A DNA stretch of 49,753 bases, the filler included, from Jimgerdemannia flammicorona (lineage: Eukaryota), in NCBI GenBank assembly GCA_003990765.1. It is 2 parts of 2 records of this genome, joined end to end, with 100 filler letters (N's around TTAATTAATTAA, not from the genome) between each part and the next. Parts side by side here need not be neighbours in the genome. Positions count along the whole stretch, not along the records: positions 1 to 24,827 come from RBNJ01000918.1; 1 more part is not named here. One strand, written 5' to 3'. The notes beneath the pieces were generated by a model that was not told the DNA's origin, did not search any database, and saw only the letters and a program-made list of their open reading frames with translations. Position numbers and translations under genes: made by a program. Below are positions 3-38,670 of this stretch, piece by piece. Every line of letters begins with the position of its first letter. Within the stretch, counting starts at the first letter, position 1.

Positions 3-140
3 GATATGGAGGAGGAGGATATAGAGGAAAGTGGTTCGGAATATATTGAGGAAGATGGTTTGGAATATGAGAAGGAGGAGGATCAGTTGGTTTATAGCAA
101 TGAAGAGGAGGATCAGTTGGTTTATAGCGATGAAGAGTAA
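3..140 (+). CDS. C-terminal acidic tail of an ORF entering from outside the window (possibly a transposase)
   Basis: Open frame DMEEEDIEESGSEYIEEDGLEYEKEEDQLVYSNEEEDQLVYSDEE* with a 30-bp internal duplication; TAA at 138-140. Confidence 0.45.
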   Translation, partial: DMEEEDIEESGSEYIEEDGLEYEKEEDQLVYSNEEEDQLVYSDEE

Positions 141-385
141 GATCTGTTCACACCGGTAAGTTCTTTATTTTCCTGATTTACTTCCTATTTATTTCCGATT
201 TCATTTTGATTTCTGATTCCTAATTATGTTTCTGTTTGTTTATTCTAAATATATCTTAGATGTGCAATATATTTTTTTTGGTGCCTTGTAGCTTAAAGGC
301 GGATTAAAGACAGGTCTGTATCAGGTTAAATACATGTCAGGGTCGGGTCACGTATATTTCTCAGGTCGGGTCACATATATTTCTC

Positions 386-664: not shown

Positions 665-1323
665 CCTGCCCCTGTGGAGATAAGTTTCATCGTGGCCATC
701 TCCTCAGGTGCGGTCTTCTTGGCGGTTCATATTCTGCTTTCCGAGGTTCTTCAGATCGAGATGAACAGCTCGACTGGTTTACCAGTAATGAATGGCAGGA
801 AGAACTTCGTGCCTACCCTCTTCACACTCTCCACGAGACAGCCTACCATGCCATAGATGCCATGTGTAACTCTGGTGGCCATCTTGCGGTCGGGTTCTGC
901 TTGACCGAGATTATGAAGATACTTGGGTGATTGAGCGATCGCACATTTTCCTCACTTCTTTCTTTCCCCTCATTTACCCTGGTTGGTTCTCACGTTGTTG
1001 AGAGCATGTTGAGTTATTCATCTCATATCAGTCGTTTGGTGTTTAGTTGTCGATACAGTTCTTGTAGTAGGTGCCAGGCGAATGTGTATTATATCTTAGC
1101 CTTTCTTTTCTTTGCTTTTTGCATTTATTATCTCTATGGCCATGACAAAATGGTTTTATCCAGCCCGTCCATAGGGTGGTCACCTCTCTGGCCTTTGTTT
1201 TGTACTTCTTAGCTAGTTGTTTACTTCGCTGGCCTCGTTTTGCTTTCCTCATCTTAGGAGTCTTTGTCTTTTGTTGCTCCGATATACCTTTCTCCTCTAC
1301 AATGAATAAATTCTTACTTGAAG
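665..1323 (+). mobile_element. Telomere-associated LINE copy 0 (3' fragment: ORF2 C-terminus with CCHC knuckle, plus 3' UTR)
   Basis: Near-identical to 5830-6493. Encodes CPCGDKFHRGHLLRC, stop at 928-930, AATAAA at 1305-1310, and ends TTCTTACTTGAAG. Confidence 0.92.
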
Positions 1324-1339
1324 CCTAACCCTAACCTAA
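1324..1339 (+). repeat. Telomeric repeat spacer CCTAACCCTAACCTAA
   Basis: C-strand of (TTAGGG)n between copies 0 and 1. Confidence 0.9.
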
Positions 1340-1345
1340 GCCCCT

Positions 1346-1498
1346 CACGTGATTTCCCCATTTGGCTAGACTCGGCTTTACGGCCCGAAGGTATTCCAAA
1401 TTAAGAAAGCAGTCACTTTGATTAGCTAAGCCTCTCATCAGGTATAAATACCCCTCTTTCACATTATTTTTTCATTGCACAAACAAAGGTCACGTGAC
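1346..1498 (+). promoter_or_regulatory. Candidate internal promoter of the LINE
   Basis: CACGTG at 1346-1351, TATAAA at 1443-1448 within a GGTAT/ATACC inverted repeat, and palindrome GTCACGTGAC at 1489-1498. The TATA element is kept in all four copies that have a 5' end. Confidence 0.4.
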
Positions 1499-1552
1499 TC
1501 GTATTTCACAATTTCACAAACACAAACAAATACACCTTTGCCTATTTCGGCA

Positions 1553-3051
1553 ATGTCGGCCACCTCCTCCGTCGTCGGTGATGATGGCAACGCCACCTGC
1601 CTCTTCGCGTGCTTCGGCGCCTCTCTTCGCTACGCTGAATGTCGCGGCGTCGGTCTTCTCTCCCTTGGCTTCAGCAAGGGTAGCCTTATGGTGATGTGCA
1701 GGTCTTGCGGGAATGCATGACTGATATCGTCGTATTTATCTTCCCTGCGTGATGCGGAAGATGACGAAGAGATCACGATCTCTTCCGATTCGGACCATGA
1801 TGCCCAGCACTCCCCCTACTCTCCCACGCCCCCGCCCCTCAATCGGAATAAGCGTGGTCACCCAAACACTAGTTTGAGAATGACCCCGACAGCTGGTCAT
1901 GCAGGCCCCTCAACCGACCCCGATCTGGTCATGGAGATGGCCATGATGAGGAAGCAGATCTCGGATTTGCTGACTCAAGTGGCCGAACTGGCCAAGATCA
2001 ATGCCCAGCTGATGGCGCAGCTTGCTGCGCGTCATGCGCCCACTGCCCCCTCGTCATCTGGTGCTCCCTCGGGAAGCACCCCCACTGTCCCTTCCACATC
2101 CGCCCCCCCCAAGTCCTCGGCCCCCCCTCCTACTGGTCTTGCCACGAACACGCGGTCGAAGGCCCAGAAGTGAGCGGACAAGCGGGCCGTTAAAGCCGCC
2201 GCATCGCAGTCTGGTACACCGCCGAAGGAGGCAACTCCCACGGCTGTGCCTCCAGCTGCTAAAGCCACGCCCCCTAAAAAGGGCAAGGCCAAGGCTCCCG
2301 GGCTAGTGCCCCAGGTTACGCCTGTGGGACCCAGTGCCGCCGGTCCATCTTCATTCTCCGCTTCGACCCCTGCCCCCCCCAAATCATATGCCACCACCGC
2401 CAAGAAGGTCTCTATCAAGGATAGGACCCAGGCCTACTCTGAGACAGAAAGGGCAGCTGCTGCTGCTGCCCTTTCGCGCATGACCCACAAGTCGACCTCT
2501 CATTTGTCGCCGACTGAGAAGGGTGCTAGGCTGCAGCCCGTCTACATTGACAGGTTTGCCCATCTAAAGATCGGGCAGATCTGGAAGAACTTGTATGACG
2601 TCCATGTGATGTTGTCAAAAGTTCTCAACATCTCGTACGTCTCGGCGTCGACTATTGAATTCCTTCTCCGCCCTGATTATGTCACGGCGTTCCAAAAGAA
2701 GATGAAGGTGCTCGGGTTCTCGGTGCTGTCGGCCTGGGACCCGCGCTCCCACGCAACAAAAACGGCACGGAGGCCGTGAAGACATGAGTCCTCCAATCAT
2801 TCTATGCTCGGGTCTGGCAGTTGGCTGGCGAAGCCACTGCAAAGAGGCCCGAGGTGCAGACCTTCTACCGAGCTTGGGCCGCGGAACTTGGCCTTACTCT
2901 TCCTTCCATTGTCTCCCCATCGGCCGGCCCTGCTTCGAAGACAGGTGGTACTGTGGCCATGATAGGTAACATGGCAATGGATTTGGAAGCTGAAGCTTCC
3001 GCCTCAGGTGCTTCTCACACTATTGGTGCTAACGTGCCCGGCCCACAATGA
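1553..3051 (+). pseudogene. LINE ORF1, copy 1 (about 499 aa when repaired)
   Basis: MSATSS start; two CxxC pairs in the consensus (CAEC...CRSC); heptad coiled coil MRKQISDLLTQVAELAKINAQL; Pro/Ala/Lys linker; conserved C-terminal domain. CGA>TGA stops at 1718 and 2171 and a 1-bp frameshift near 2740. Confidence 0.85.
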
Positions 3052-6000
3052 GAGTCGGGTTCCTCAATGCACACAGACTACCCCAGGACAAGTTCGATGT
3101 GCTCAGTCATTTGATTGGTCCTGCCATTGACATTCTCTTCATATGTGAAACGTGGCACATTCTGCTGCATCCCTCTCCGCTCATTCACATGTCCTCCCCT
3201 CTGGTGTTGCACAGGATCATTGGTCACCAGAATGGTGGTCTCGTGGTCCTTGTGTCAAACCATTTCGCCCCCCTTATTTCCGGGTCCTCTGCCGACCCCT
3301 TCCATATCCGACTCATGTTCCAGAGCCTGGCTTTGGTTGGGGTTTACCCCCCCCCCTCTCTTCCCATTGTTGGCTTCCGCAATCTGGTGTCTGGACCCTT
3401 CCCGGGTAAGGCCCTTTTGATCGGTGACATCAATACCTGTTTCGGTGCCTGCTTTGGTGACATCAACTCTGGTCCTCACAATCAGATGGATGTCGTCGAC
3501 ACCTCCCTGATGACATAGTCATTGAACCACCTGACCCCGGTGGCTGGATCTATATGCATTGATCACGTGTTCGCCACCGCGTCCCTCCACGCGTCCCTCA
3601 CCTGCTCTACCCCTCCTGTCGCCACTGACCACCCCTCCCTCCTCACCATCTCCTTCTCCTTCTCTCTCTCGCCGGTTGCTGCCTTGGCTGGCATCCGTCG
3701 TTACTCTGCGAGATACCTGACTGACCCGGTCGTTCAAGCTCACCTTCGGGAATCAGCGGATATCATTTGCGATACCGTTATCAGGTCTATCTACTCCGTT
3801 AGAGACCACATCGCTGGCTTTCACTCTGTGGATGATCGCCAGCAGTTTGTGGATTCCCTTGATGCTTTTTTGACCTCTGGTCTGCAGTCTGTCTATGAGG
3901 ACATTCTTGGCTCATATGATGCAAGAGATATTAGAGCAGTGCCACTCCCTAGGTGTGACCTCCTTCGCAGTGCATCCTCGGTCTCTGATGCCATCCGTGG
4001 TTTTAAGCGAGCGTACCGCTCCACCCCCTCCGCACCCCTTCAGTCCCGCTCTACCAATGTCCCAGTGTTCGATGATGTGGTTGCTCACTTTACCACTATC
4101 TTTGGCCAGCCGGACGCCTCCCTCCGCCTCGATGACTCTGAAGATGTCTTTCTCCTCGACGTGGGCACTCTTGGGCTGCAGTCTTGGTTTGACCAACCTG
4201 CGGTTTGGAGGGCTGTCCGCAGCTACCCACTATCAAAGGCGTGTGGTGCCGACTCCTTGCATGTCCGAATCCTTCGGGTGATGGCAGGTGAGAAGGACAC
4301 CCCCTATAGCCTTTTGAAGGCCCTCTCGTTCTTCTTCCAGATGTGCATGGTTTGGGGGCTCACTCCCCACCACTGGAACTCAGCCATCATCACCCCGGTC
4401 CCGAAGAAGGAGGAATCATGAATGATTGATGGATTTCGCCCTATTGCTCTGACTGAAATGTTTTGTAGACTCTTCGAGCGGTGTTTGGAAGGATATGTCA
4501 AGAGCCGAAGCGGCCTGACAGAAATGTCGCACTGCCAAGGCAGCTTCCGAACCCGCTTCTCGTCCCTTTCTCATGTCTTGCTTTTGCACGAGATGTGGGC
4601 TAAGGGATGGGGCTGCCATATCTTCTTGGACCTCCGGCAGGTGTATGATCGAGTCCCCCTCAAGTGCATTCTTTCTTGCCTTGAGGCGCGAGGTGCCGAT
4701 GCAGCCCTCCTTAGCATTATCCGAAGCCTGTTCAATCACTGCTCTTATCAGGTGGTTGTTAATGGCCTCATCACCCCTTCGGTCCCCACTGAGTGCAGCC
4801 TCTTCAAGGACTCCCTCCTCTCCCCTTGGCTCTTTGATGTCTTTATCGACCCCCTCGCCGCCTCTTTTGATGAACAGTTCAAGGAGTACGACTTCCCCCT
4901 CGGGCTTTTCTTCGCTGATGATATCGCCCTTACCCCCCGTACTGCCGCGGAAGGGCAAAGGATGGTTGACTTCTGTGAGGATTGGCTTCAGGTGAACGGT
5001 ATGGAGCTCAATCCCAAGAAGTGTGGTTATGTCAGCCCAGCAGACTGTACTGTGCTGATTGGGGGTGAACTCTGCCCGCGACCCACCTCCTACGTATACC
5101 TGGGTGTACCGTACACCAACAAAGGGTTTGACTTTGTCATCCTCGCGTTGCAGAATGCGGCAAAGGCGGAACGAACCCTTGGGTTCTGCCTTGCCCGTGG
5201 TCCTCTCTGGTTGCCAATGGTCAAGTTGGCCATCGTACGAACATTCATCAGACCTCAGCTGGAGTATGGCCTCCCCCTCCTACGAGCCTCCTGTCCGGCT
5301 ACTACCACGGGGCTTCAGGTGTTGAAGTGTCCCGAGCAGGTCTTTGATGATGCTGTCGCTTGGGCAGTTGGATTTTCCGGCCGTCCCTTGCTTGGCAGTT
5401 CGATTCTCGGCCTCCCTTCCTTCCTTTGTCACATGTCTGACCTCTGCTGCATGTTCCAAGCCTATCTGGATTGGTGTAGCAAGTCGGGCAACAACCCCAT
5501 CGGCCCTCTTAGCGAGCACTTTGTCACGCATCCCCTGGGTTCTATCATTGATAAGTTCCGGCGTTGGACCTCCTGGCTTGACTTCCTCGACTAGTACTGG
5601 GACCTCCGTCCCCAGGTCCACAAGACTCACTCGCTCTGCTCCTTCCTCCAGTCCTTTCTCCGGGATCAGCTGCTGCAGGAATGGGCCTCCTCCTCCCAGG
5701 CTCTCATTCGGTATATTACCCCCAAAGGCCATTTACGGTCGCGGGGCGCCGATCGCGTCCTTTCCTTCCCCCCCCGGCTTGTGCATTCTGCCCTCGCCTG
5801 GCGCTATGGCTACTTTGGCCAACCCCGCCCCTGCCCCTGTGGAGATAAGTTTCATTGTGACCATCTCCTCAGGTGCGGTCTTCTCGATGGTTCGTATTCT
5901 GCTTTCCGAGGTTCTTCAGATCGAGATGATCAGCTCGACTGGTTTACCAGTGACGAATGGCAGGAAGAACTTCGTGCCTACCCTCTTCATACTCTTCATG

Positions 6001-6095
6001 AGACAGCCTGCCATGCCATAGATGCTATGTGTAATTCTGGTGGCCACCTCGCGGTCGGGTTCTGCCTGACCGAGATTATGAAGATGCTTGGGTGA
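3048..6095 (+). pseudogene. LINE ORF2, copy 1: APE endonuclease + reverse transcriptase + CCHC (1015 aa, one frame)
   Basis: APE motifs FLNAH, DILFICETW, LIGDIN, IDHVF, TDH. RT motifs PVPKK, FRPIAL, FLDLRQ.YDRV, LSPWLF, FFADDI, LNPKKC, YVYLG. C-terminal CPCGDKFHCDHLLRC. Only three in-frame stops (3516, 4419, 5592), all single transitions. Confidence 0.95.
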
Positions 6096-6493
6096 TCGAG
6101 CAATCGCACATTTTCTTTACTTCTTTCTTTCCCCTCATTTGCCCTGGTTGGTTCCCCCCGTTGTTGAGAGCGCATTGAGTTATCATCTCATATTAGTCGT
6201 TTGGTGTTTAGTTGTCGATACGGTTCATGTAGTTGGTACCGGGTGAATGTGTATTATATCTTAGCCTTTCTTTTCTTTGCTTTTTGCATTTATTATCTCT
6301 ATGGCTCTGACAAAATGGTTTTATCCAGCCCATCCATAGGGTGGTCACCTCTCTGGCCTTTGTTTTGTACTTCTTAGCTACATAGTTGTTTACTTCACTG
6401 GCCTTGTTTTGCTTTTCTCATCTTAGGAGTCTTTGTCTTTTATTGCTCCGATGTATCTTGTCTTCTCTACAATGAATAAATTCTTACTTGAAG

Positions 6494-6503
6494 CCTAACC
6501 TTA
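6494..6503 (+). repeat. Degenerate telomeric spacer CCTAACCTTA
   Basis: Between copies 1 and 2, in the same phase as the other junctions. Confidence 0.75.
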
Positions 6504-6716
6504 GCCACTCACGTGATTTCCCCATTTGGTTAGACTCAGCTTTACAGCCCGAAGCTATTCCAAATTAAGAAAGCAGTCACTTTGATTAGCTAAGCCTCTC
6601 ATCGGGTATAAATACCCCCCTTCCCCATTATTTTTTCGTTGCACAAACAAAGGTCACATGACTCATATTTCACAATTTCACAAAAACAAACAAACACACC
6701 TTCGCCTATTCCGGCA

Positions 6717-8214
6717 ATGTCGGCCACCTCCTCCGTCGTCAGTGATGATGGCAATGCCACCCACCTCTTTGCATGCTTCGTCGCCTCTCTCCGCTGCGCT
6801 GAATGTCGCGGCATCAGTCTCCTCTCCCTCGGCTTCGGCGAGAGTAGCCTTACGGCGATGTGCAGGTCGTGCGGGGATGCACGACCGATCTCATCGTATT
6901 TATCTTCCCTGCGCAATGTGGAAGATGACAAAGAGATTGCGATCTCTTCCGATTCAGACCACGACGCCCAGTGCCCCCCCTACTCTCCCATGCCACCGCC
7001 CCTCAATCGGAACAAGCGCGGTCGCTGGAACACTAGTTTGGGAATGACCCCGACAGCCGCTCGTGTGGGCCCCTCAGCCGACCCCAATCTGGTCACGGAG
7101 ATGGCCGCGATGAGAAAGCAGATCTCTGACCTGCTGACTTAGGTAGCCAAACTGGCCAAGATCAATGCCCAGCTGATGGCGCAGCTTGCTGCGCATCATG
7201 CACCCACCACCCCCTCATCATCTGGTGCTCCTTCGGGAAGTACCCCCGCTGCCCCTTCCACATCCGCCCCCCCCAAGTCCTCGGCCCCCCCTTCTACTGG
7301 TCCTGCCGCGAACATGCAGTTGAAGGCCCAGAAGCGAGCGGACAAGCGGGCTGCTAAAGCCGCCACGTCACAGTCTGTGCGCCACCAAAGGAGACAACTC
7401 CCATGGCTGTGCCCCAGCCGCTAAAGCCGTGCACCCTAAAAAGGGCAAGGGCAAGGTCTCCGGGCCAGTGCCCCAGGTTATGCCTGTGGGACCCAGTGCC
7501 GCCGGTCCATCTTCATCCCCTGTTTCGACCCTCGCCCCCCCCAAATCATATGCCGCTGCCACCAAAAAGGTCTCTATCAAGGATAGGACCCAGGCCTACC
7601 CCGAGACGGAAAGAGCAGCTGCTGCCGCCGCCTTTTCACGCATGACCCACAAGCCAACCTCTCATTTGTCACTGACTGAGAAGGGCACTAGGCTGCAGCG
7701 TGTTTACATCGATGGATTTGCCCATCTGAAGATCGGGCAGATCCGGAAGACCTTGTACGACATACATGTGATATTGTCAAAGGTCCTTAACATGTCGTAC
7801 GTCTTGGCGTTGACCATCGAATTCCTGCTCCACCCTGATTATGTCACGGCATTCCAAAGGAAGATGAAGGCACTCGGGTTCTCGGTGCTGTTGGCCTGGG
7901 ACTCTGCGCTCTCATGCAACAAGAACGCCACAGAGGCTGTGAAGACACGGGTACTCCAATCATTCCATGCTCGGGTCTGGCAATTGGCAGGCAAAGCCAC
8001 TGTGAAGAGGCCCGAGGTGCAGAGCTTCTAATGAGCTTGGGCCGCGGAACTCGGCCTCACTCTCCCCTCCCTCGCCTTCCCGCTAGCCGGCCCTGCTTCG
8101 AAGGCAGGTGGTACTGTGGCAGTGACGGGTGAAATGGTGATGGATCTGGAAGCTGAAGCTTCCACCTCAGGTGCTTCCCATGCTGTTTGTGCTAACGTGC
8201 CCAGCCTACAATGA
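6717..8214 (+). pseudogene. LINE ORF1, copy 2
   Basis: Homologous to 1553-3051; stops at 7140 and 8029, frameshift near 7380. Confidence 0.85.
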
Positions 8215-11200
8215 GAGTCGGGTTCCTCAATGCATACGGACTACCCCAGGACAAGTTCGATGTGCTCAGTCAGTTTATTGGTCCTGCCCTCGACATTCTT
8301 TTCGTATGTGAAACATGGCACATTCCGCTGCGTCCCTGTCCGCTCATTCACATGTCCTCACCTCTGGCATCATACAGGATCATGGGTCACCAGAATGGTG
8401 GTCTCGTGGTCCTTGTGTCAAACCATTTCGCCCCCCTCATTTCCGGGTCCTCCGCTGACCCCTTCCATATCCGGCTCATATTCCAGGGCTTGGCTTTGGT
8501 TGAGATTTACACCCCCCCCTCTCTTCCCATTGGTGGCTTCCGTGATCTGGTGTCTGGACCCTTCCCGGGTAAGGCCCTTTTGATCGGTGACATCAATACC
8601 CGCTTCGGTGCCCGCCTTGGTGACGTCAACTCTGGTCCTCACGATCGGATGGATGTCGTCGACACCTCTCTGATGACGTGGTCGTTGAACCACCTGACCC
8701 CGGTGGCTGGATCTATATGCTTTGACCATGTGTTTGCCACTGCGTCCCTCTACACATCCCTCACCTGCTCCACCCCTCCTGTCGCTACCGACCACCCCTC
8801 CCTCCTCACTGTCTCCTTCCCCTTCTCCCCCTCACTGGTTGCTGCCCTGGCTGGCATCCATTATTACTCTGCAAGGTACCTGACCGATCCGGTCATTCAA
8901 GCTCACCTTCGGGAATCAGCGGATATCATTTGCGATACCATTATCAGGTCTATCTACTCTGTTAGGGACCACATTGCTGGCTTTCGCTCTGTGGATGATC
9001 GCCAGCAGTTTGTGGATTCTCTTGATGCTCTTTTGACCTCTGGTCTACAGTCTGTTTGTGAGGACATTCTTGGCTCATATGACGCAAGAGAAATCAGAGC
9101 AGCGCTGCTCCCTAGGCGAGACCTCCTCCGCAGTGTATTCTCAGTCTTGAATGCCATTCGTGGTTTTAAGCGAGCATACCGCTCCACCCCCTCCGCACCC
9201 CTCCAGTCCCGCTCCCCCAATGTCCCGGTATTCGACGACGTGATTGTTCACTTTATTACTATCTTCGGCCAACCAGAAGCCTCCCTCCATCTCGATGACT
9301 CAGAAGATGTCTTCCCCCTCGGCGTGGGTGCTCTTGAGCTGCAGTCTTGGTTTGACCAACCTATAGTTTGGAGGGCTGTCCGCAGCTACCCCCTCTCGAA
9401 GGTATATGGTGCCGACTCCTTGCATGTCCGGATCCTTCAGGTGATGACAGGTGAGAAGGATGCCCCCTGTAGCCTTTGGAAGGTCCTCTTGTTCTTCTTC
9501 CAGATGTGTGTAGTTTGGGGGCTCACTCTCTGCCACTGGAACTCAGCCATCATCACCCTGGTCCCCAAGAAGGAGGAATCGCAAATGATCGATAGATTTC
9601 GCCCTATTGCTCTGGCTGAAATGTTTCGTAGACTCTTCGAGCGATGTTTGGAAGGATACATCAAGAGCCGAAGTGGCCTGACAGAAATGTCATGCTACCA
9701 AGGTGGCTTCCAAACCCGCTTCTCATCCCTATCTCATGTCTTGTTATCGCACGAGACGTGGGCTAAGGGATGGGGCCGCTATGTCTTTTTGGACCTCCGG
9801 CAGGTGCAAGATCGAGTCCCCCTCAAGTGCATCCTTTCTCGCCTTGAGGCACAAGGTGCCGATGCAGCTCTCCTTAGTATTATTCGAAGCCTGTTCAATC
9901 ACTGTTCTTATTAGGTGGTTGTTAATGGCCTCGTCACACCTTCAGTCCCCACTGAGCATGGCCTCTTCCAGGACTCCCTCCTCTCCCCTTGGCTATTTGA
10001 TGTCTTTATCGATCCCCTCGCCACCTCTTTTGATGAGCAGTTTAAGGTGTACGACTTCCCCCTCAGGCTTTTCTTTGCTGATGACATCACCCTTACCCCC
10101 CGCACTACCGCGGAAGGGCAAAGGATGGTTGATTTCTGTGAGGATTGGCTCCAGGTGAACGGTATGGAGCTCAATCCCAAGAAGTGTGGTTATGTTGGCC
10201 CGGCTGACTGTACTGTGCTGATTGGGGGCGAACTCTGCCCACGACCCACCTCCTACGTGTACCTGGGCATGCCGTACACCAACAAAGGGTTTGACTTTGT
10301 CAACCTTGCATTGCAGAATGCGGCGATGGCGGAACGAACTCTTGGTTTCTGCCACACTTGTGGTCCCCTCTGGTCGCCAATGGTCAAGTTGGCCATCATA
10401 CGAACATTCATCAGGCCTCAGCTGGAGTATGGCCACTCTCTTCTACGAGCTTTCTGTCCAGCTACTACCACGGGGCTTCAGGTGTTAAAGCATCCCGAGC
10501 AGGTCTTTGATGATGCTGTCGCTTGGGCGGTTGGATTTTCCGGCCGTCCCTTGCTTGGCAGCTCGATTCTTGGCCTCTCTTCCTTCCTTTGTCATATGTC
10601 TAACCTCTGCTGCATGTTCTAAGCCCACCTGGATTGGTGTAGCAAGTCGGTCAACAAACCTATCGGTCCCCTTAGCGAGTGCTTTGTCACGTGTCCCCCA
10701 GGTTCTATTATTGACAAGTTCCGGCATTGGACCTCTTGGCTTGACTTCCTCAACTGGTACTGGGACCTTCGTCCCCAGGTCCACAAGACTCACTCGCTCC
10801 GCTCCTTCCTCCAGTGCTTCCTTTGGGATCAGTTGCTGTAGGAATGGGCCTCCTCTTCCCAGGCTCTCGTTTGGTATATCACTCCCAAAGGCCACTTGCG
10901 GTTGAGGGATACCGATCATGTCCTCTCCTTCCCCCCCCGGCTTGTGCATTCTGCCCTTGCTTGGCATTATGGCTACTTTGGTCAACCCCGCCCCTGCCCC
11001 TGTAGAGATAAATTTAATTGTGGCCATCTCCTCAGGTGCAGTCTTCTCAATGGTTCGTATTCTGCTTTCCGAGGTTCTTCCGATCATGATGAACAACTCG
11101 ATTGGTTTTCCAATAACGAATGGCAGAAAGAACTTTATGCCTACCCTCTTCACGCTCTTCACGAGACAGCCTACCATGCTATAGACACCATGTGTAATTC

Positions 11201-11258
11201 TGGTAGCCACCTCGCGGTCGGGTTTTGCCTGACTGAGATTACGAAGATGCTTGGGTGA
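8211..11258 (+). pseudogene. LINE ORF2, copy 2 (APE-RT-CCHC)
   Basis: Same 3048-nt length as copy 1; 567-aa open stretch, then stops including CAG>TAG at 9912 and CAA>TAA at 10620; FFADDI retained. Confidence 0.93.
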
Positions 11259-11352
11259 TCAAGTGATCGCACATTTTCTTTACTCCTTTTCTTCCCCTCA
11301 TTTGCCCTGGTTGGTTCTCCAGTCGTTGAGAGTGCATTGAGTTATTCATCTC

Positions 11353-12526
11353 TTTTTTTTGTTTAATGGACTCTATGTCTCATGGAATTTTATTGGAAGG
11401 GAACCTAGACTGTATAGGCCAAAACCCTCTCCCACCATCCACCAAGCACTGTCCCCCCGTTAATCTAGGCTAGCTATTGTCCAGCAGCCCAACCATGCCA
11501 GGCGCAGCAGGGCAAAGAAGCCCGCACCCATTCTACACACCATGCTCTCCCTACCACCAGGGGAAACCCAGCCATATGCCAATGACTGAAAGCGCACGCC
11601 CAAGAACTCAACGTATGTACAAGGCCACACCCGAGCTGAATAGAATAGCCCCTGCCACCCCAAAGAGAATGACAGGCAAAGAAAAACCCTCATCAAAGTA
11701 CAACATGGTGGATAGGGCCTGGTTCTCCCAGTCAAGGTGAGTAAAGGACTTACACGTGAGGCGGGAGGAAATCCCCAATACCCCACTACTCAAGCTTGTC
11801 GGCCTCGATCATGTTGCCATGTCAGCTCCCAGTTCCAGTTGAGTGCAGCCAAGATACCTGAAATGGATAGCCTCAGGCCCCCCGACCCCCCCTGACGACT
11901 GGGGCCTCATCCCACTATCTGCCAAAAGAAGCTGAGAGTGAGACCTACCACCTAACTGTACTGCACCAATCAAAAGGCCCCACCGAAGCAGCATCTGCCC
12001 CAGCCCCGACGACCGCCCCCAGCCTGGCACCCTACTGGTCCACCATTATCATCCTTCCTCCTATCTGTGATGGCCATCTCCCCTCCCAACCCAACAACAC
12101 CCGAAAAGCAGTCACCTACGCCAGAACCGCGCTCGCCGGGAATCTCGCCAAAGCCAGAGGGCCCCACCACAGGCACCGAAGACCTGCAGATAACCTACAC
12201 TGGGCACTTAATGCCCAAGGTCAGCTGACTCCCTATGTAGCCTGAGACATACCGAGACAACACCTCGTTGGCGACGGCAAAAGGAAGAAGGTGCCGCACC
12301 AAAACAAGTACACCCCAGATGTAGCCGAAGGGACCAGAATCCGTGAAAAAGTGGAGGAAGCACCGATCCGACACTGATAAAGGGGCAACTCAATACTATT
12401 ACCCTCCTCCCACCATGCCCCTACAGGCACAGCAAATCAACCTGAGGTAGAGGGGGTAATATTAAGGGAAAGGGGACTCGGAAGGTCGCTTACCAAACCT
12501 TGTGACTGGTAAGGTAGCGGAGAAAG
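11353..12526 (-). mobile_element. ~1.17-kb poly(A)-tailed non-coding retroposon (copy A) with 23-bp target-site duplication
   Basis: T-run at 11353-11360; AATAAA on the minus strand near 11388-11393; TSD GAGTGCATTGAGTTATTCATCTC (11330-11352) and GAGCATGTTGAGTTATTCATCTC (12527-12549); homologous end to end with 22547-23735. Confidence 0.88.
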
Positions 12527-12846
12527 GAGCATGTTGAGTTATTCATCTCATGTCAGTCGTTTGGTGTTTAGTTGTCAATATAGTTCATGTAGTTGGTGCC
12601 AGGCGAATGTGTATTATATCTTAGCCTTTCTTTTCTTGCTACTGCATTTATTATCTATACAGCCATGACAAAATGGTTTTATCCAGCCCGTCCATAGGGT
12701 GGTCACCTCTCTGGCCTTTGTTTTGTACTTCTTAGCTAGTTGTTTACTTCGCTGGCCTTGATTTGCTTTTCTCATCTTAGGTGTCTTATCTTTTGTTGCA
12801 CCGATGTACCCTATCTTCTCTACAATGAATAAATTCTTACTTGAAG

Positions 12847-12857: not shown

Positions 12858-15800
12858 GCCACTTATGTGATTTCCCATTTGGCTAGACTCGGCTTTACGG
12901 CCCGAAGCTATTCCAAATTAAGAAAGCAGTCACTTTGATTAGCTAAGCCTCTCATTGGGTATAAATACCCCCTTCACCATTATTTTTTCATTGCACAAAC
13001 AAAGGTCACATGACCTGCATTTCACAATTTCACAAACACAAACAAACACACCTTCACCTTTTCCGGCAATATCGGCCACCTCCTCCATCGTCGGCAATGA
13101 CAGCAATGCCACCTGCCTCTTTGTGCACTTTGGCGCCTTTCTCCGCTGTGCTGAATGCCGCGGCATCGGTCTTCTCTCTCTTGGCTTCGGCGAGGGTAGC
13201 CTTATGGTGATGTGCAGGTCGTGTGGGGATGAACGACCGATTTCATCGTATTTATCTTCCCTGCATGATGCGGAAGATGATGAAGAGATCGCAATCTCTT
13301 CCAATTTGGACCATAATGCCCAGCGCCCCCCTACTCTCCCACACCCCCACCCCTCAACCGGAACAAGCGTGGTCGCCCGAATACTAGTTTGGAAATGACC
13401 CCAACTGCCAGTCGTGCAGGCCCCTCAGCCGACCCCGATCTAGTCACGGAGATGGCCGTGATGAGGAAGCAGATCTCGGATCTGCTGACTCAAGTAGCCG
13501 ATCTGGCCAAGATCAACACCCAGCTGATGGCGCAGCTAGCTGCGCGTCATGTGCCCACCGCCCCCTCGTCATCTGGTGCTCCCTCGGGAAGTACCCCCAC
13601 TGCCCCTTCCACATCTGCCCCCTCCAAGTCCTTGGCCCCCCCTCCTACTGGTCCTGCCACGAACATGCGGTCAAAGGCCCAGAAGCGAGCGGACAAGCGG
13701 GCCGCTAAAGCTGCCACGTCGCAGTCTGGTGCACCGCCAAAGGAGGCAACTCTCATAGCTGTGCCTCTGGCCGCTAAAGCCGCACCCACTAAAAAGGGCA
13801 AGGCCAAGGCTCCCGGGCCAGTGCCCCAGGTTACGCCTGTAGGACCCAGCACCGCCGGTCTGTCTTCATCCCCTGCTTCGACCCCCGCCCCCCCCAAATC
13901 ATATGCTGCCACCGCCAAGAAAGTTTCTATCAAAGATAGGACCCAGGCCAACCCCGAGATGGAAAGAGCAGCTGCTGCCACCGCTCTTTTGCGCATGACC
14001 TGGAAGCCGACCTCTCATTTGTCACTGACTGAGAAAGGAGCTAGGCTCCAGCGTATTTACGTCGACAGGTTTGCCCATCTTAAGATCGGGCAGATCCAGA
14101 AGAACTTGTACGACGTCCATGTGATGTTGTCAAAAGTTCTCAATATGTCGTACGTCTCGGCGTCGACCATCGAATTCCTGCTCCACCCTGATTATGTCAC
14201 GGCGTTCCAAAAGAAGATGAAGGCACTCGGGTTCTCAGTGCTATTGGCCTGGGACCCTGCACTCCCATGCAACAAGAACGCCATAGAGGCCGTGAAGACA
14301 CAGGTACTCCAATCATTCCATGCTTGGGTCCGGTAGTTGGCAGGTAAAGCCACTGCGAAGAGGCCTGAGGTGCAGACCTTCTACCAAGCCTGGGCCGTGG
14401 AACTCGGCCTCACTCTCCCCTCCCCTGCTTCCCCATCGGCTGGCCCTGCTTCGAAGGCAGGTGGTACTGTAGTCATGATAGGTAATATGGTGATGGATTT
14501 GGAAGCTGAAGCTTCCACCTCAGGTGCTTCCCATACTGTTGGTGCTAATGCGTCTGGCCCACAATGAGAGTCGGGTTCCTCAATGCACATGGACATCCCA
14601 GGACAAGTTCGATGTGCTCAGTCGATTGATTGGTCCTGTCCTCGAGGTTCTTTTCATATGTGAAATGTGGCACATTCCGCTGCATCCCTCTCCACTCATT
14701 CACATATCCTCTCCTCCAGCATCGAACAGGATCGTGGGTCACCAGAACAGTGGTCTCGTGGTCCTTGTATCAAACTGTTTCGCCCCCCTTATTTCCAGGT
14801 CCTCCGCCAACCCCTTCCATATCCGGCTCATGTTCCAGAGCTTGGCTTTGGTTGGGGTTTATGCCCACCCTTCTCTACCCATTGGTGGCTTCTGTGATCT
14901 GGTGTCTGGACCCTTCCCAGGTAAGGCCCTTTTGATCGGTGACATCAATACCCGCTTCGGTGCCTGCCTTGGTGACGTCAACTCTGGTCCTCGCGATCGG
15001 ATAGATGTCGTCGACACCTCCTTGATGACGTGGTCGTTGAACCACCTGACTCCAGTGGCTGGATCTACTTACGTTGACCATGCGTTCGCCACCGCATCCC
15101 TCTATAAGTCTCTCACCTGCTCTACCCCTCCTGTCACTACTGACTACCCCTCTCTCCTCACTGTCTCCTTCCCCTTCTCCCCCTCACCGGTTGCTGCCTT
15201 GGCTGGCATCCGACGTTACTCTGCGAGATATCAGACCAATCTGGTCATTCAAGCTCATCTCTGGGAATTAGCGGATATCGTTTGCGATACCATTATCAGG
15301 TCTATCTACTCTGTCAGAGACTACATCGCCGGCTTTTGCTCTATGGAAGATCGCCAGCAGTTTGTGGATTCCCTTGACGCCCTTTTGACCTCTGGTCTAC
15401 AGTCAGTCTGTGAGGACATTCTTAGCTCGTATGATGCAAGAGAGATTAGGGTGGCACTGCTCCCTCGGCGTGACCTCCTTCACAGTGCATCTTCAGTCTC
15501 TGATGACATCTGTGGCTTCAAGCAAGCATACTGCTCCACCCCCTCCACGCCTCTCCAATCTCGCTCTCCCAATGTCCCAGTATTCGATGATGTGGTTGCC
15601 CACTTCACCACCATCTTCGGCCAGCTGGATGCCTCCCTCCGCCTTGATGACTCTGAGGACATCTTCCCCCTTGGCGTGGGCGCTCTTGGGCTGCAGTCTT
15701 GGTTTGACCAACCTGTGGTTTGAAGAGCTGTCTGTAGCAACCCCCTCTCAAAGATGTGTGGTGCTGACTCCTTGCATGTCCAGATCCTTCGGGTGATGGC

Positions 15801-18005
15801 AGGTGAGAAGGACGCCCCTTGTAGCCTTTCGAAGGCCCTCTTGTTCTTCTTCCAGATGTGCATGGTCTGGGGGCTCACACCCTGCCGCTGGAACTCAGCC
15901 ATCATCACCCCAGTCTCCAAGAAGGAGAAATCACAAATGATCGATGGATTTCGCCCTATTGCTCTGACTGAAATGTTTTGTAGACTCTTCGAGCAGTGTT
16001 TGGAAGGATATGTTAAGAGCTGAAGTGGCTTGACAGAAATGTCGTGCTGCCAATTTGGCTTCTGAACCTGCTTCTCGTCCCTTTCTCATGTCTTGTTATC
16101 ACACGAGACATGGGCTAAGGGATGGGGCCACCGTGTCTTTTTGGACCTTCGGCAGGCGTATGATCGAGTCCCTCTCAAGTGCATTCTTTCCCGCCTTGAG
16201 GTACAAGATGCCGACGCGACCCTCCTTAGTATTATTCGAAGCCTGTTCAATCATTGTTCTTATCAGGTGGTTGTTAATGGCCTCATCACCCCTTCGGTCC
16301 CCACTGAGCGTAGCCTCTTCCAGGGCTCCCTCCTCTCCCCTTAGCTGTTTGATGTCTTTATCAACCCCCCTTGCCGCCTCCTTTGATGAGCAGTTCAAGG
16401 AGTACGACTTCTCTCTCGGGCTTTTCTTTACAGATAATATCGCCCTTATCCCCGGCACTGCTGCAGAAGGGCAAAGGATGGTTGATTTTTGTAAGGATTG
16501 GCTTCAGGTGAACGGTATGGAGCTCAATCCCAAGAAGTGTGGTTATATTGGCCTGGCTGACTATACTGTGCTGATTGGGGGTGAACTCTGCCCACGACCC
16601 ACCTCCTACATGTACCTGGGCGTGCCATACACTAACAAAGGGTTTGATTTTATCAGCCTTGTGTTATAGAATATGGCAAAGGCAGAATGAACTCTTGGGA
16701 TCTACAGTGCCCATAGTCCCCTCTGGTCACCAATGGTCAAGTTGGCCATCGTACGAACGTTTATCAGGCCTCAACTGGAGTATGGCCTCCCCCTTCTATG
16801 AGCTTCCTGTCCAGCTACTATCACGGGGCTTCAGGTATTAAAGCGTCCCGAGCAGGTCTTTGATGATGCTGTTGCTTAGGTGGTTGGATTTTCTGGCTGT
16901 CCCTTGCTTGGCAGTTTGATTCTTGGTCTCCCTTCCTTTCTTCGTCATATGTCTGACCTCTACTGCATGTTCCAAGCCCTTCTGGATTGTTGTAGCAAGT
17001 TGGGCAACAACCCCATCAGTCCCCTTAGCAAGCGCTTTGTCACGCGCCCCCCGGGTTCTATTATTGATAAGTTCCGGCATTGGACCTCTTGGCTTGACTT
17101 CCTCGACTAGGACTGGGACCTCTGTCCCCAGGTCCGCAAGACTCACTCACTCTGCTCCTTCCTCCAGTCCTTCCTTCAGGATCAGCTGCTACAGGAATGG
17201 GCCTTCTCTTCCCAGGCTCTTGTTCAGTACATCACCCCCAAAGGCCGCTTGCGGTCACGGGGTACCAATCGTGTCCTCTCCTTCCCACCCTGGCTTGTGT
17301 GTTCTACCCTTGCTTGGTACTATGGCTATTTTGGCCAACCCCGCCCCTGCCCCTGTAGAGATAAGCTTAATCGTGGCCATCTCCTCAGGTGCGGTCTTCT
17401 CGATGGTTTGTATTCTGCTTTCCGAGATTCTTCCGATCGTGAAGAACAGCTCGATTGGTTTACCAATGATGAATGGCAGGAGGAATTTCATGCCTACCCT
17501 CTTCATGCTCTTCACGAGACAAGCTACCATGCCATAGATGCCATGTATAATTCTGGTGGCCACCTCATAGTTGGGTTCTGCCTGATTGAGATTATGAAGA
17601 TGCTTGGGTGATCGAGCGATTACACATTTTCTTTACTTCCTTCTTTCCCCTCGTTTGCTTGATTGATTCCCCCCGTTGTTGAGAGTATATTGAGTTATTC
17701 ATCTCATGTCAGTCGTTTGGTGTTTAGTTGATGATACAGTTCATGTAGTTGGTGCCAGGTGAATGTGTATTATATCTTAGCCTCCCTTTTCTTTGCTTTC
17801 GCATTTCATTATCTATATGGCCATAACAAAATGGTTTTATCCAGTCCGTCCATAGGGTGGTCACCTCTCTTGCTTTTATTTTATACTTCTTAGCTAGTTG
17901 TTTACTTCACTGGTCTTGTTTTGCTTTTCTCATCTTAGGAGTCTTTGTCTTTTGTTGCTCCGATGTATCTTATCTTCTCTACAATGAATAAATTTTTACT
18001 TGAAG
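12858..18005 (+). mobile_element. Telomere-associated LINE copy 3 (full length, decayed)
   Basis: Colinear with copy 1. ORF1 13069-14567 (start mutated ATG>ATA); ORF2 14564-17611 with frameshifts and stops; catalytic ADD mutated to TDN. Confidence 0.93.
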
Positions 18006-18025
18006 CCTAACCCTAACCCTAACCC
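18006..18025 (+). repeat. Telomeric spacer CCTAACCCTAACCCTAACCC
   Basis: Longest perfect tract (20 bp); joins copy 4, which lacks the first 11 nt of the element. Confidence 0.92.
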
Positions 18026-21000
18026 GATTTCCCCATTTGGCTAGACTTGGCTTTACGGCCCGAAGCTAAACCAAATTGAGAAAGCTGTCACTTTGACTAG
18101 CTAAGCCTCCCATCGGGTATAAATACCCCCTTCTCCATTATTTTTTCATTATATAAACAAAGGTCATATAACCTATATTTCAAAATTTCACAAATACAAA
18201 CATTCCTCCATCTAATTTGGTAATGTTGGCCACCTCATCTATCATCGGTAATGACAGCAACACCATCCATCTCTTTGTATGCTTCAGCACCTCTCTTTGC
18301 TATGCTGAATGTCATGGCATCAATCTCTTCTCTCTTGGTTTTGGCAAGGGTAGCCTGATGGCGATGTACTGATCATGCGGGGATACACGACCAATATTGG
18401 CGTATTTATCTTCCCTGCATGATGCAGAAGATGACAAGGAGATTGTGATCTCTTCCGATTTGGACCATGACACCCAGCACTCTCCCTACTCTCCAATACC
18501 ACCACTCCTCAATTAAAACAAGCATGGTTGCCCAAACACTAGTTTGAAAATGACCCCGATGGCTGGTCATGTGGGTCCCTCAGCCGACCCCGATCTGGTT
18601 ACAGAGATGGCTGCAATGAGGAAGCAGATCTCAGATCTGCTGACTCAGGTGGCTGAACTGGCCAAGATCAATACCCAGCTGATAGTACAGCTTGCTGTAT
18701 GATCTGCACCCACTGCCCCCTCATCATCTGGTGCTCCTTTGGGAAGTACCCCTACCACCATTTCCACATCTGCCCCCCCCAAGTTCTCGGTCCCCCCTCC
18801 TACTAGTCCCACTGCGAATACACAGTTAAAGGCCCAGAAGAGAGCGGATAAGTGAGCCACCAAAGCCGCTGCATCATAATCTGGTGTGCTGCTGAAGGAG
18901 GCAACTCTCATGGCTGTGCCTCTGGCTGCTAAGGCTGCACCCCCTAAAAAGGGCAAGGCCAAAGCCCCCAGGCCAGTACCCCATGTTATGCCTGTGGGTC
19001 CCAGTGCTGCCAGCCAGTCTTCGTCCCCTACTTCGACCCCTGCCCCCCCCAAATCGTACGCCACCGCTGTTAAGAAGATTTCTATCAAAGATTGGACCCA
19101 GGCCTACCCCAAGATGGAAAGGGCAGCTGTCACCACCACCCTCTCACATATGACTGATATGCCGACCTCTCATTTGTCGCCGACTGAGAAGGGCGCTAGG
19201 CTGCAGTGCATTTATGTTGATGGGTTTGCCCATCTTAAGATCAGGTAGATCCAGAAGAACTTGTATGACATCCATGTGATGTTGTCAAAAGTTCTCAACA
19301 TGTCATATGCCTCGGCGTCGACCATCGAATTCCTGCTTCGCCCTAATTATATCATGGCATTCCAAAAGAAGATAATGGTGCTCGGGTTCTCAGTGCTGTC
19401 AGCCTGAGGCTCTGTGCTCCCCACAACAAGAATGCCATGGAGGCCATGAAGATACAGATACTCCAATCATTCCATGCTCAGATCCGGCAGTTGGCTGGTG
19501 AAGCCACTGCGAGAAGGCCTGAGGTGCAGACCTTCTATAGAGCTTGGGCTGCAGAACTCGGCCTCACTCTCCCTTCTTTCACCCCACCATTGGCCAGCCC
19601 TGCTTCGAAGGCAGATGGTACCGTAGCTGTAATGGGTGAGATAGTGATGGATTTGGAAGCTGAAGCTTCCTCCTCAGGTACTTCCCATGCTGTTGGCACT
19701 AATGCACCCAGCCCACAATGAGAGTCGGGTTCCTCAATATATATGAACTACCTCAGGACAAGTTTGATGTGCTCAGTCAGTTGATTGTTCCTGCCCTCGA
19801 CATTCTTTTCATAGCACATCTCACTGCGTCTCTCTCTGCTCATTCACATGTCCTCCCCTCCAGCATCACACAGGATCATGGGCCACCAAAATGGCAGTCT
19901 TGTGGTCCTTGTGTCAAACTGTTTCGCTCCCCTCATCTCCGGGTCCTTCACTGACCCCTTTCATATTCAGCTTATGTTCCAGGGCCTGGCTTTGGTTGGG
20001 GTTTATGCCCCCCCTCCCTTCCTATTGGTGGTTTCCATGATCTGGTGTCTGGACCCTTTCTGGGTAAGGCTCATCTGATCAGTAACATCAATACTCACTT
20101 TGGTGCCTATCTTAGTGATGTCAACTCTGGTCCCCACAACCAGATGGATGTCGTTGACATCTCCCTAATAACATGATCATTGAACCACCTGACCCCAGTG
20201 GCTGGATCTATATGTGTTGATCACGCATTCACCACTGCATCCCTCTACGCGTCTCTCACCTACTCCACCCCTCCTGTTGCTACCAACCACCCCTCTCTCC
20301 TCACTGTCTCCTTTCCCTTCTCTCTCTTGCCGGTTGCTGTCTTGGCTGGTATCTGTCATTACTCTGCGAGATACCTGACTGATCCGGTCATTCAAGCTCA
20401 CCTTCGGGAATTAGCAGATATTGTTTGCGATACTGTTGTCAGATCTGGTATTGAAGCATCCCAAGCAGGTCTTTGATGATGCTGTCACTTGGGCAGTCAG
20501 ATTTTCCAGCTGTCTCTTGCTTGGCAGCTCCATTCTTGGTCTCCCTTCCTTTCTTCATTGAACGTCTGACCTCTGCTGAATGTTCCAAGCCCACCTGGAT
20601 TGGTGTAGCAAGTCTGGTAACAATCCCATTGGCCCCCTTAGTGAGTGCTTTATCATGCATCCCTCGGGTTCTATTATTGACAAGTTCTGGTGTTGGACCT
20701 CTTGGCTTGACTTCCTCAACTAGTACTGGGACCTTTGTCCCCAGGTCTGCAAGACTCGCCTGCTCTGCTCCTTCCTCCAGTCCTTCCTTCAGGATCAGCT
20801 ATTGCAGTAATGGGCCTCCTCTTCTCAGGCTCTCATTCAGTATATCACCCCCAAAGGCCACTTGCAGTCACGGGGCGCTGACCATATCCTCTCCTTCCCC
20901 CCCCAGCTTGTGTGTTCTGCCCTCGCCTAGTGCTATGACTACTTTGGCCAACCCTGCTCCTGCCTCTGTGGAGATAAGTTTCATTGTGGACATCTCCTCT

Positions 21001-21618
21001 GGTGTGGTCTTCTTGATGGCTCATATTCTGCAATCTGAGGAACTTTCGATCGAGATGAACAACTTGATTGATTTACTAATGACGAATGGCAGGAAGAACT
21101 TCATGCCTACCCTCTTCATGCTCTTCATGAGATAGCCTATCATGCTATAGACACTATGTATAATTCTGGTGGCTACCTCATGGTCAGGTTCTGCCTGACC
21201 GAGATTATGAAGATGCTTGGGTGATCGAGCAATTGCACATTTTCTTTACTCCTTTCTTTCCCCTCATTTGCCTTAGTTAGTTCCCTTGTTATTGAGAGCA
21301 CATTGAGTTATTCATCTCATGTCAGTCATTTGGTATCTAGTTGTCGATACCGTTCATGTAGTTGGTGCCAGGCGAATGTGTATTATACCTTAGCCTTTCT
21401 TTTCTTTGCTTTTTGCATTTATTATCTTTATGGCCATGACAAAATGGTTTTTATCCAGCCCGTCCATAGGGTGGTCACCTCTCTGGCTCTTGTTTTGTTC
21501 TTCTTAGCTAGTTGTTACTCTGCTGGCCTTTTTTTGCTTTTCTCATCTTAGGAGTCTTTGTCTTTTGTTGCTCCAATGTACCTTGCCTTCTCTACAATAA
21601 ATAAATTCTTACTTGAAG
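18026..21618 (+). mobile_element. Telomere-associated LINE copy 4 (most decayed; ~1.53-kb internal deletion removes the RT core)
   Basis: ORF1 remnant 18223-19721, ORF2 remnant 19718-21224; the junction at 20446/20447 joins positions equivalent to 3788 and 5318 of copy 1. Confidence 0.92.
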
Positions 21619-21634
21619 TCTAACCCTAACCCTA
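21619..21634 (+). repeat. Telomeric tract TCTAACCCTAACCCTA at the right end of the array
   Basis: Follows the invariant TTCTTACTTGAAG 3' end. Confidence 0.88.
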
Positions 21635-24927: not shown

Positions 24928-25031
24928 AGGTCCGCATCCAGACCCCGAAGCCAACCAAAGATGTACTTCCTCCTAGCCGCCCCCCGTAACCCATTAACGT
25001 TCAATGAGAATATCCTAGTTGTACTGTTCAT
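24928..25031 (-). CDS. N-terminus of L1-type ORF2 (APE endonuclease)
   Basis: MNSTTRIFSLNVNGLRGAARRKYIFGWLRGLDAD, the typical L1 APE motif I (S.NV.GL). Confidence 0.85.
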
Positions 25032-25062
25032 ATTGAATAGATATTGTAGAAGAGACCCCAAC

Positions 25063-26910: not shown

Positions 26911-27055
26911 CTGCTACCAGCCAAAGGTGCCGCCACCCCCCTGGCCAGTATGCTCACCAGATCGATCATTGCCGTCTATGTTGTTAGTCGTTGGACACCA
27001 AAAACATTGTAAAAAGTGTTGTCTGAGTCTTGTGTAACCTGAATGTTGTCAGAGA

Positions 27056-36460: not shown

Positions 36461-36884
36461 CTACGCCAACGGGCTAATCAACCTGATAAAGCGGTGGTGA
36501 GGTCGCAGATCAGACACAGAGACAGGAAAGACGAGAAACAAATGTGGCATGGGAGGAATTTATCGCTACATACTTGATCAGAGATGGCTTTGGGTTACTC
36601 CAGGTGAAGCCTGGGCATGTGTGGAGGGATATGTAGGTGAGGCAAAAAATAAAAAGTAAAAACGAGCTGAGGACGCAAATCCAGTCGGCCCTGAGAGTTG
36701 CTTACCGAGGTAGATAACGAAGGGGATGAATCCCCAATGGACGACGTGCTTGGTAAAGTCGATGACCTGGTTTGGTGAGAGGGGAATGGGGAGCGATGAG
36801 GGATAGGTTGGGTGTGAAATAAAGCTTAGGCGAGGATTTCTTTCCTTGTACCTTGAGTATTTTCTCCTTTGTTTCCTCCTGCAT
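36461..36884 (-). CDS. TOM7: Mitochondrial import receptor subunit Tom7, 4 exons
   Basis: Spliced product MQEETKEKILKVIDFTKHVVHWGFIPFVIYLGFTWSNPKPSLIKLISPLA*, with the Tom7 signature H.GFIP.V.YLG; GT-AG introns. Confidence 0.92.
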
Positions 36885-37023
36885 GATGACGGTTCACTGT
36901 TTGGCTGGTTGCTGTTGCTAGTAAATTTGTTTATATATATATAAGGCGTGACTGGTTTATCGTCCTGTGGCTCATTTCCATGCATTTTTGTTTTTCCACC
37001 AGCAACCTCTCCCTCCCTTCACC

Positions 37024-38639: not shown

Positions 38640-38640
<1 letters not shown>

Positions 38641-38670
<30 letters not shown>
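38641..38670. repeat. (TTA)10 microsatellite
   Basis: Perfect trinucleotide run between the convergent ACL4 and NAT genes. Confidence 0.9.

Follow-up and report, generated by a model that had tools for sequence, protein, structure and literature searches.

What sets the point at which a retrotransposon joins the telomere repeat? The question is raised by a stretch of 49,753 nucleotides from Jimgerdemannia flammicorona (assembly GCA_003990765.1), here called the window, of which positions 1–24,827 come from RBNJ01000918.1 and are followed, after 100 filler letters, by another part that is not necessarily its neighbour in the genome. On the plus strand, positions 665–21634 hold five decayed copies of a non-LTR (long terminal repeat) retrotransposon, arranged head to tail with a unit of ~5.15 kb (5154 bp), and a telomere-type tract of 10–20 nt adjoins each 3' end. 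A first-pass annotation had noticed that all copies enter the repeat in one register. The sequence evidence makes it fairly probable, in our judgement, that the element is a telomere-repeat-specific long interspersed nuclear element (LINE) of the apurinic/apyrimidinic endonuclease (APE) type, which would nick at TTAGG^G and whose transcript, ending in flanking repeat, would pair with the nicked strand through CCUAA.

One phase at the 3' junctions of the array

The copies were delimited by blastn with copy 1 (1340–6493) as query, and their coordinates and tracts are collected in Table 1. All five 3' ends read AATAAA-N13-/CCTAAC, where the slash marks the junction, one of them as TCTAAC. The single register that the annotation had described, with TCTAAC as one C>T change, is therefore what the five junctions read, and the spacings that it had given as 16, 10, 11, 20 and about 16 bp measure 16, 10, 11, 20 and 16 nt. 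GAAG joins the tract directly in every copy, and from the reading and alignment of the junctions there is no A-run between GAAG and the tract at any of the five; the claim that AATAAA lies 13 nt before the junction with no A-tail copied thus holds for all copies. A 19-mer spanning this region, AATAAATTCTTACTTGAAG, occurs five times on the plus strand (at 1305, 6475, 12828, 17987 with one mismatch, and 21600) and not once in 100 shuffles, and the window's six exact CCTAACCC sites are all located at array junctions. Given independent insertions and random phase, the chance of one shared phase would be (1/6)^4 = 7.7e-4.

The sense strand of the element runs on into the C-rich telomere strand. On the other side, the 5' junctions of the three full-length copies read ...CTAA/GCC (once TTA/GCC), which within a repeat array amounts to either a 5-bp duplication or the loss of 1 bp, and the truncated copy 4 has a 5' junction of another phase. 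The annotation had also described the terminal AAGCCTAA as a one-mismatch mimic of AACCCTAA. This is correct by inspection; of the element's own bases only the two A's of the terminal AAG take part in the mimicry, and the last three bases of related elements are often AAN but also ACT and ATT.

An APE-type LINE, apparently nearest to L1

The second open reading frame (ORF2) of copies 1 and 2 is a single frame with three in-frame stops in each and no frameshifts. Its reverse transcriptase (RT) is of the LINE type: Pfam RVT_1 matches copy 1 (Table 1) and 40 of 41 family members, and the family profile matches the RTs of L1 and R2. The APE catalytic set N7, E34, Y100, D127, N129, H173 and H195, numbered on the copy 2 protein, is invariant in the 41-member alignment, in which D172 and D194 are conserved at ≥90%. 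The best match of the family profile among PDB sequences is human L1 ORF2p, to which it aligns across APE and RT (E 4e-51) with the L1 motifs LNVNGL, ET, GDFN, DH and SDH in register. The L1 endonuclease (EN) alone matches the profile at E about 1e-9, and the EN chains of TRAS1 and R1 (R1Bm) give no match at E≤1. Pfam calls Exo_endo_phos in 20 of the 41 members. An AlphaFold 2 model of ORF2 residues 1–225 has a pLDDT (predicted local distance difference test score) of 91.6, and Foldseek confirms the fold of the modelled domain, its top matches being L1 EN, APE1 and TRAS1 EN with E values of about 1e-9 to 1e-10; L1 EN ranks first and TRAS1 EN (1wdu) 17th with similar scores (E 5.9e-9, template-modelling score 0.65).

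A CCHC knuckle is the only feature C-terminal to the RT. ORF1 (~1553–~3040) carries a coiled-coil-like stretch, and no Pfam family was found for it, either in the window pieces or in the intact ORF1s of three relatives (L024, L049 and L066). Terminal repeats are absent, and 5' truncations of the LINE type are seen in copies 0 and 4 and in two related loci (a 30-nt copy in L003, and L012). The poly(A) or simple-repeat tail typical of LINEs is missing, with no A-run at any of the five window junctions or 27 junctions of relatives; such a tail is not universal among LINEs, and R1/R2-type elements also lack one. The element is an APE-type LINE. Its protein sequence appears nearest to L1 and not evidently of the R1 clade, an affinity drawn from profile and structure matches.

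Two other identities were considered. A Penelope-like (Coprina) element, the first candidate, was dropped when the APE domain was found, and the LINE-type RT and the lack of any Rfam match also speak against it: Rfam returned no match at gathering score anywhere in the window, and hence no hammerhead ribozyme. The CRE-clade elements MoTeR, FoTeR and Cnl1 were ruled out because the endonuclease here is N-terminal and APE-type, not C-terminal and restriction-enzyme-like.

Relatives in metagenomes share the phase

A profile search of 1.84 billion representative proteins gave 5324 at E≤1e-30, a total that includes other APE-type LINEs. The best 150 of these are mostly ~1000 amino acids long and cover the profile end to end, at no more than 35% identity to the window ORF2. 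A homologue search set to longer proteins had returned only two relatives, a yield that the exhaustive search shows to reflect limited sensitivity rather than rarity; clusters with APE and RT are also present in the ESM Atlas. Scanning metagenome contigs yielded 79 loci that encode relatives at 24–32% amino acid identity. In an RT tree these fall into two large clades, and the window copies belong to a clade of 41 loci, 26 of which have a C-strand telomere-type tract 3' of ORF2 in the same orientation as in the window.

A phase-blind script called 27 3' junctions at 22 of the loci. Thirteen are strictly N/CCTAAC (L002, L003 three times, L005, L007, L013, L020, L023, L024, L028, L072 and L079), against a chance expectation of 1/6 (P = 1.5e-4, a rough value since the lineages are related), and three more (L010, L011 and L012) start with CCTA in a degenerate unit, for 16 of 27 in all. 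The proposal of a defined priming site is thus supported family-wide. Extended in this way from the window to its relatives, the annotation's suggestion of phase statistics gave CCTAAC as the predominant though not the sole phase, and its expectation that poly(A) tails would be absent was borne out at all 27 junctions. Tracts in relatives are 9–28 nt long. AATAAA ends 10–16 nt before most of the junctions; in L004 and L007 it ends 1–2 nt before, which would place the poly(A) site inside or beyond the tract.

Several loci are informative individually. L024 is intact, with an ORF1 of 507 and an ORF2 of 999 amino acids, and its 3' end reads ...CGTGAAG/CCTAAC. In L003 a 30-nt truncated copy (4803–4832) lies between two tracts, and in L012 the element recurs after a tract, as a copy truncated at position 1910. 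Other telomere-type units are also met: L047 ends (3244–3258) on CCTAACCTAACCTAA, with a CCTAA unit (TTAGG type), L063 (4634–4651) on CCCTAAACCCTAAACCCC, with a CCCTAAA unit (TTTAGGG type), and L012 (3410–3421) on the telomere-type CCTAAACCCTAA. Judging by these units, the family may have tracked hosts with differing telomere repeats. Its host range is probably fungal and wider. Past the 3' tract of L004 (4465–4690) and L007 (8633–8821) there are ~30-nt tandem units, each with ACCCTAAC(CCT), which are a satellite that carries the telomere motif or else the 5' region, rich in repeats, of a next element.

A sister clade in the opposite orientation

In the other RT clade the 3' ends meet the opposite strand of the repeat, as AATAAA-N8-13/GTTAGGGTTAGG in L026, L049, L065 and L066, and the loci that abut GTTAGGGTTAGG often do so exactly 12 nt before the next sequence. 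A further member in this orientation, L061, abuts GGTTAG and leads, at the contig end, into a TTAGGG array ≥85 nt long; L040 and L042 show G-strand adjacency on the 5' side. ORF1 and ORF2 are uninterrupted in the two members that were scanned, L049 and L066, with Exo_endo_phos_2 and RVT_1 present. A 3' end lying before TTAGGG requires a C-strand 3'-OH, which a natural chromosome end does not offer, so the sister elements must nick. By analogy, this clade mirrors SART, as the counterpart of the TRAS-like orientation in the window.

Decay and history of the copies

Divergence among the copies is 7–18%, with a transition/transversion ratio of ~7–8 (665–21618). The 658 singleton changes include 261 C>T and 206 G>A (467 together), enriched at CpG and CpA; this decay signature is RIP-like (repeat-induced point mutation) or methylation-driven, and the TCTAAC junction variant fits it. 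A fungal host is suggested by the RIP-like C>T decay, by the TTAGGG repeats and by introns of the GTAAGT type. The in-frame stops are not common to copies 1 and 2. Among the four long copies the 2:2 splits number 73, 67 and 63, a star phylogeny; these copies therefore came from intact, near-identical sources and then decayed separately. Tract lengths that are not linked by whole-repeat steps, together with the 11 nt missing from the 5' end of copy 4 and the 4490 nt missing from copy 0, favour separate retrotransposition over the duplication of a single unit, without amounting to proof.

A candidate mechanism and its alternatives

The reading that we favour combines a specific nick with pairing of the template. 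Transcription would continue into the flanking repeat, giving RNAs of the form ...GAAG-CCUAA(..)-poly(A). Cleavage and polyadenylation normally take place 10–30 nt after AAUAAA, and an RNA 3' end inside the repeat is suggested by an AATAAA just 13 nt before the last element base. The ORF2 endonuclease would cut the G strand at TTAGG^G, the released ...TTAGG-3'OH would anneal to CCUAA of the RNA, and reverse transcription would begin at the first non-telomeric base; the second strand would be joined after ...CCCTAA to give the 5' junctions ...CTAA/GCC. Such pairing would explain the uncopied A-tail and the constant N/CCTAAC phase, with tract length set only by where the nick falls. The annotation had posed nick specificity and a read-through template as alternatives. 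The two probably act together, as suggested by the intact-type APE domain, the C-strand-nicking sister clade and the poly(A) signal close to the junctions. Its phrase 'telomerase-like template' overstates the case, since the RNA would pair over only ~5 nt to position the primer.

Several points weigh against this reading. A template carrying CCUAA gives the same phase wherever the nick falls, so that phase by itself cannot separate the alternatives, and both read-through and the poly(A) site are predicted from where AATAAA lies. Some of the five window copies may have arisen in linked rather than independent events, and every 5'-side telomere tract in the window is the 3' tract of the upstream copy, none being independent. 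Among the relatives, 15 of the 41 clade loci lack a tract (six of these contigs end <1400 nt past the match and nine run further), seven of the 27 junctions are ambiguous because the element ends in C, and four are in another phase (N/CCCTAA in L015 and L056b, N/AACCCT in L018 and L056a). Lastly, all tracts are short (9–28 nt), unlike the prediction of random nicking in a long telomere.

This last point bears on the best-surviving alternative, addition to chromosome ends independently of the endonuclease: the CCCUAA tail of the RNA would pair with the G-rich 3' overhang of an eroded end, the RT would extend that end, telomerase would re-cap the new end and the next element would be added. Addition of this sort has been proposed for HeT-A/TART. 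End-priming of this kind has also been put forward for the EN-deficient Penelope-like elements (PLEs) Athena/Coprina, and 3' reverse-complement telomeric repeats are described as a hallmark of EN-minus PLEs (PMC8557442). The orientation in the window is as such a route predicts, with the 3' end centromere-ward and then CCCTAA; tracts of 10–20 nt in the window and 9–28 nt in relatives are as expected at critically short telomeres; the proximal 16-nt tract sits directly on unique AT-rich DNA; and the phase differs at the 5' junction of the truncated copy 4. Given the short tracts and the 16-nt tract on unique DNA, end addition at eroded telomeres stays in play, as either a competing or a further route. 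As the sole explanation we nevertheless consider it unlikely: the APE domain is retained with its catalytic residues invariant family-wide, a chromosome end cannot serve as primer for the oppositely oriented sister elements, and the window contains no hammerhead ribozyme or other Rfam family. The first deviation from telomere sequence falls at the same repeat position across lineages with diverged termini, and this, with a sister clade that is necessarily EN-dependent, favours a fixed primer end.

A little less likely again is a precise nick followed by a precise start with no pairing, in which the RNA ends ...GAAG-poly(A), the RT skips the tail and the phase reports only an EN specificity for TTAGG^G. 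The phase is constant at the five window junctions and predominant in relatives as this would require, and an AATAAA 13 nt upstream could put cleavage exactly at the junction. Site-specific LINEs do begin at defined template positions, but TRAS/SART, which work in this way, copy poly(A) (PMC7265360), whereas A-tails are seen at none of five plus 27 junctions; in L004 and L007, moreover, the hexamer is 1–2 nt from the junction, too close for cleavage there.

The invariance could also be trivial, if tandem duplication or unequal crossing-over had multiplied one unit of element plus tract and hence one ancestral junction. A star phylogeny is also expected from a burst of duplication, and a single indel and a single substitution are all that separate tract 2 from tract 3; but the tract lengths are not linked by whole-repeat steps, LINE-type truncations (11 nt in copy 4, 4490 nt in copy 0) are not made by duplication, and the phase recurs in 11 separate loci of other organisms, all of which renders this account very improbable. 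We give equally little credence to the CCCTAA tract being the element's own templated, microsatellite-type 3' tail with no telomere specificity: the tracts are always short, each in the window can be read as the tail of the preceding copy and the last adjoins unique DNA, but elements lie head to tail and truncated copies have tracts on both sides (L003, L012), L061 of the sister clade enters a long TTAGGG array, other telomere-type units occur in L047 and L063, and tract length differs between copies of one family.

Layout of the array and flanking DNA

Table 1. Coordinates of the retrotransposon array and its parts, counted along the whole window.
Feature	Position	Strand	Remarks
Copy 0	665..1323	+	5'-truncated, element positions 4491-5154 only (659 bp); 92% identity to copy 1, blastn
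AATAAA, poly(A)-signal-like hexamer	1305..1310	+	ends 13 nt before 3' junction; in 5/5 copies
Telomere-type tract 1, CCTAACCCTAACCTAA	1324..1339	+	16 nt; junction flagged by the first-pass annotation
Copy 1, full length, 5154 bp	1340..6493	+	ORF1 ~1553-~3040; ORF2 3048-6095; 3' untranslated region 6096-6493
APE-type endonuclease domain, ORF2 of copy 1	3048..3692	+	amino acids 1 to ~215; alignments, L1 EN motifs, AlphaFold 2 model/Foldseek
Reverse transcriptase region, ORF2 of copy 1	4422..5594	+	Pfam RVT_1, E 9.6e-18
Telomere-type tract 2, CCTAACCTTA	6494..6503	+	10 nt, degenerate
Copy 2, full length	6504..12846	+	foreign 1.18 kb insertion 11353-12533; ORF2 from 8211, first 567 amino acids open
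Telomere-type tract 3, CCTAACCCTAA	12847..12857	+	11 nt
Copy 3, full length	12858..18005	+	blastn
Telomere-type tract 4, CCTAACCCTAACCCTAACCC	18006..18025	+	20 nt
Copy 4	18026..21618	+	~11 nt missing at 5' end; internal deletion, element positions ~2449-3976
Telomere-type tract 5, TCTAACCCTAACCCTA	21619..21634	+	16 nt; proximal array edge, then unrelated AT-rich DNA

The homology of copy 0 begins at ~665, directly after a 33-bp minisatellite (367–629, 7.9 copies) that includes GGGTTAAAGA. The flank on this side is non-telomeric DNA and lacks a telomere tract; at the start of the window (60–148) is a 30-bp coding-like repeat with acidic residues. The insertion in copy 2 opens with a T-run, equivalent to a poly(A) tail on the minus strand, and is flanked by a ~16 bp direct duplication, TTGAGTTATTCATCTC; it looks like a retroposed sequence from a different, poly(A)-using LINE machinery.

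A TATA-like GGTATAAATACCCC at 1436–1450, ~100 nt inside the 5' end of the element, has equivalents in copies 2–4, and CACGTG is present at element positions 8–13. If this TATA-like box acted as the promoter, the first ~130 nt would be missing from the RNA. HeT-A transcription starts from the upstream neighbour and, by analogy, transcription here may possibly start in the upstream copy as well.

In the other part of the window, positions 25000–32000 have an excess of C over G on the plus strand (GC skew −0.36 to −0.55), and an open 606-residue, Gly/Glu-rich frame on the minus strand (25063–26883) matched no Pfam family. Intron-bearing genes for Tom7, a tetratricopeptide repeat protein, a class I aminoacyl-tRNA synthetase and a protein kinase are found at 36500–49753, with an arylamine N-acetyltransferase gene on the minus strand at 38781–39761. 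The array therefore adjoins normal gene-bearing DNA, the genes starting ~15 kb away along a joined stretch whose parts may not be neighbours.

Comparison with known telomere-associated elements

The closest parallel is with TRAS1/SART1 of Bombyx mori, R1-clade LINEs with APE and RT that insert at a fixed telomere-repeat position in opposite orientations and form head-to-tail arrays; the elements described here share the APE and RT, the fixed repeat position, the two groups of opposite orientation and the arrays (PMC7265360). They differ in the target unit, TTAGGG rather than TTAGG, and in an apparently L1-like rather than R1-clade affinity. According to PMC7265360, SART1 has a terminal poly(A) tail, which must be long if initiation is to be accurate, whereas poly(A) is uncopied in our elements, and the insertion position of TRAS1 is described differently from the TTAGG^G nick suggested above. 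Tx1-1_ACar of the green anole (Tx1/L1 group; Repbase Reports 2013), cited as telomere-inserting and of an L1-like clade (PMC10088271), would, judged from the citation, resemble our elements in its telomeric-repeat target and L1-side affinity.

Among other groups, MoTeR, FoTeR and Cnl1 also lie in or beside TTAGGG-type repeats, in arrays with short repeat tracts, and MoTeR too lacks a poly(A) tail. These CRE-clade elements carry a restriction-enzyme-like endonuclease (PMC12857005) in place of the N-terminal APE domain found here. Athena/Coprina likewise have short reverse-complement telomeric repeats at the 3' end, able to pair with the G strand (PMC8557442). They have, however, no endonuclease, a PLE/TERT-like RT and hammerhead motifs, as against an APE, a LINE-type RT and no Rfam match in the window. 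HeT-A/TART/TAHRE of Drosophila share the head-to-tail arrays with 3' ends centromere-ward; they take the place of telomerase repeats entirely and are attached through oligo(A), unlike our array, in which telomerase-type repeats separate the copies.

To our knowledge, APE-type telomere-specific LINEs have been well studied in insects only (TRAS/SART). A literature search, with Repbase Reports and subscription journals outside its scope so that an earlier description is possible, found no such element described in fungi, and a 2023 survey of telomere-inserting elements names, in the part used here, the CRE-clade MoTeR1 alone for fungi (PMC10088271).

Implications

Taken with its relatives, the array suggests a broadly distributed pair of clades, apparently nearest to L1 in sequence, that hit TTAGGG in either orientation at fixed positions and leave no A-tail. 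The intact members in public contigs (e.g. L024, L049 and L066) would offer new natural endonucleases with (TTAGGG)n specificity, and the system allows a simple test of the joint role of template–target pairing and nick specificity in fixing where reverse transcription begins. The finding also bears on the origin of interstitial telomere tracts and subtelomeric arrays. A bolder extension, which we put forward as a speculation with the odds against it, is that the sister clades are a large, old and unnamed pair that uses the host telomere repeat as a primer-binding site and serves as a back-up for healing ends beside telomerase in fungi and other TTAGGG-type eukaryotes. If that were true, nicked internal repeats and eroded chromosome ends could both prime reverse transcription, and relatives would seem to have followed hosts with TTAGG and TTTAGGG repeats.

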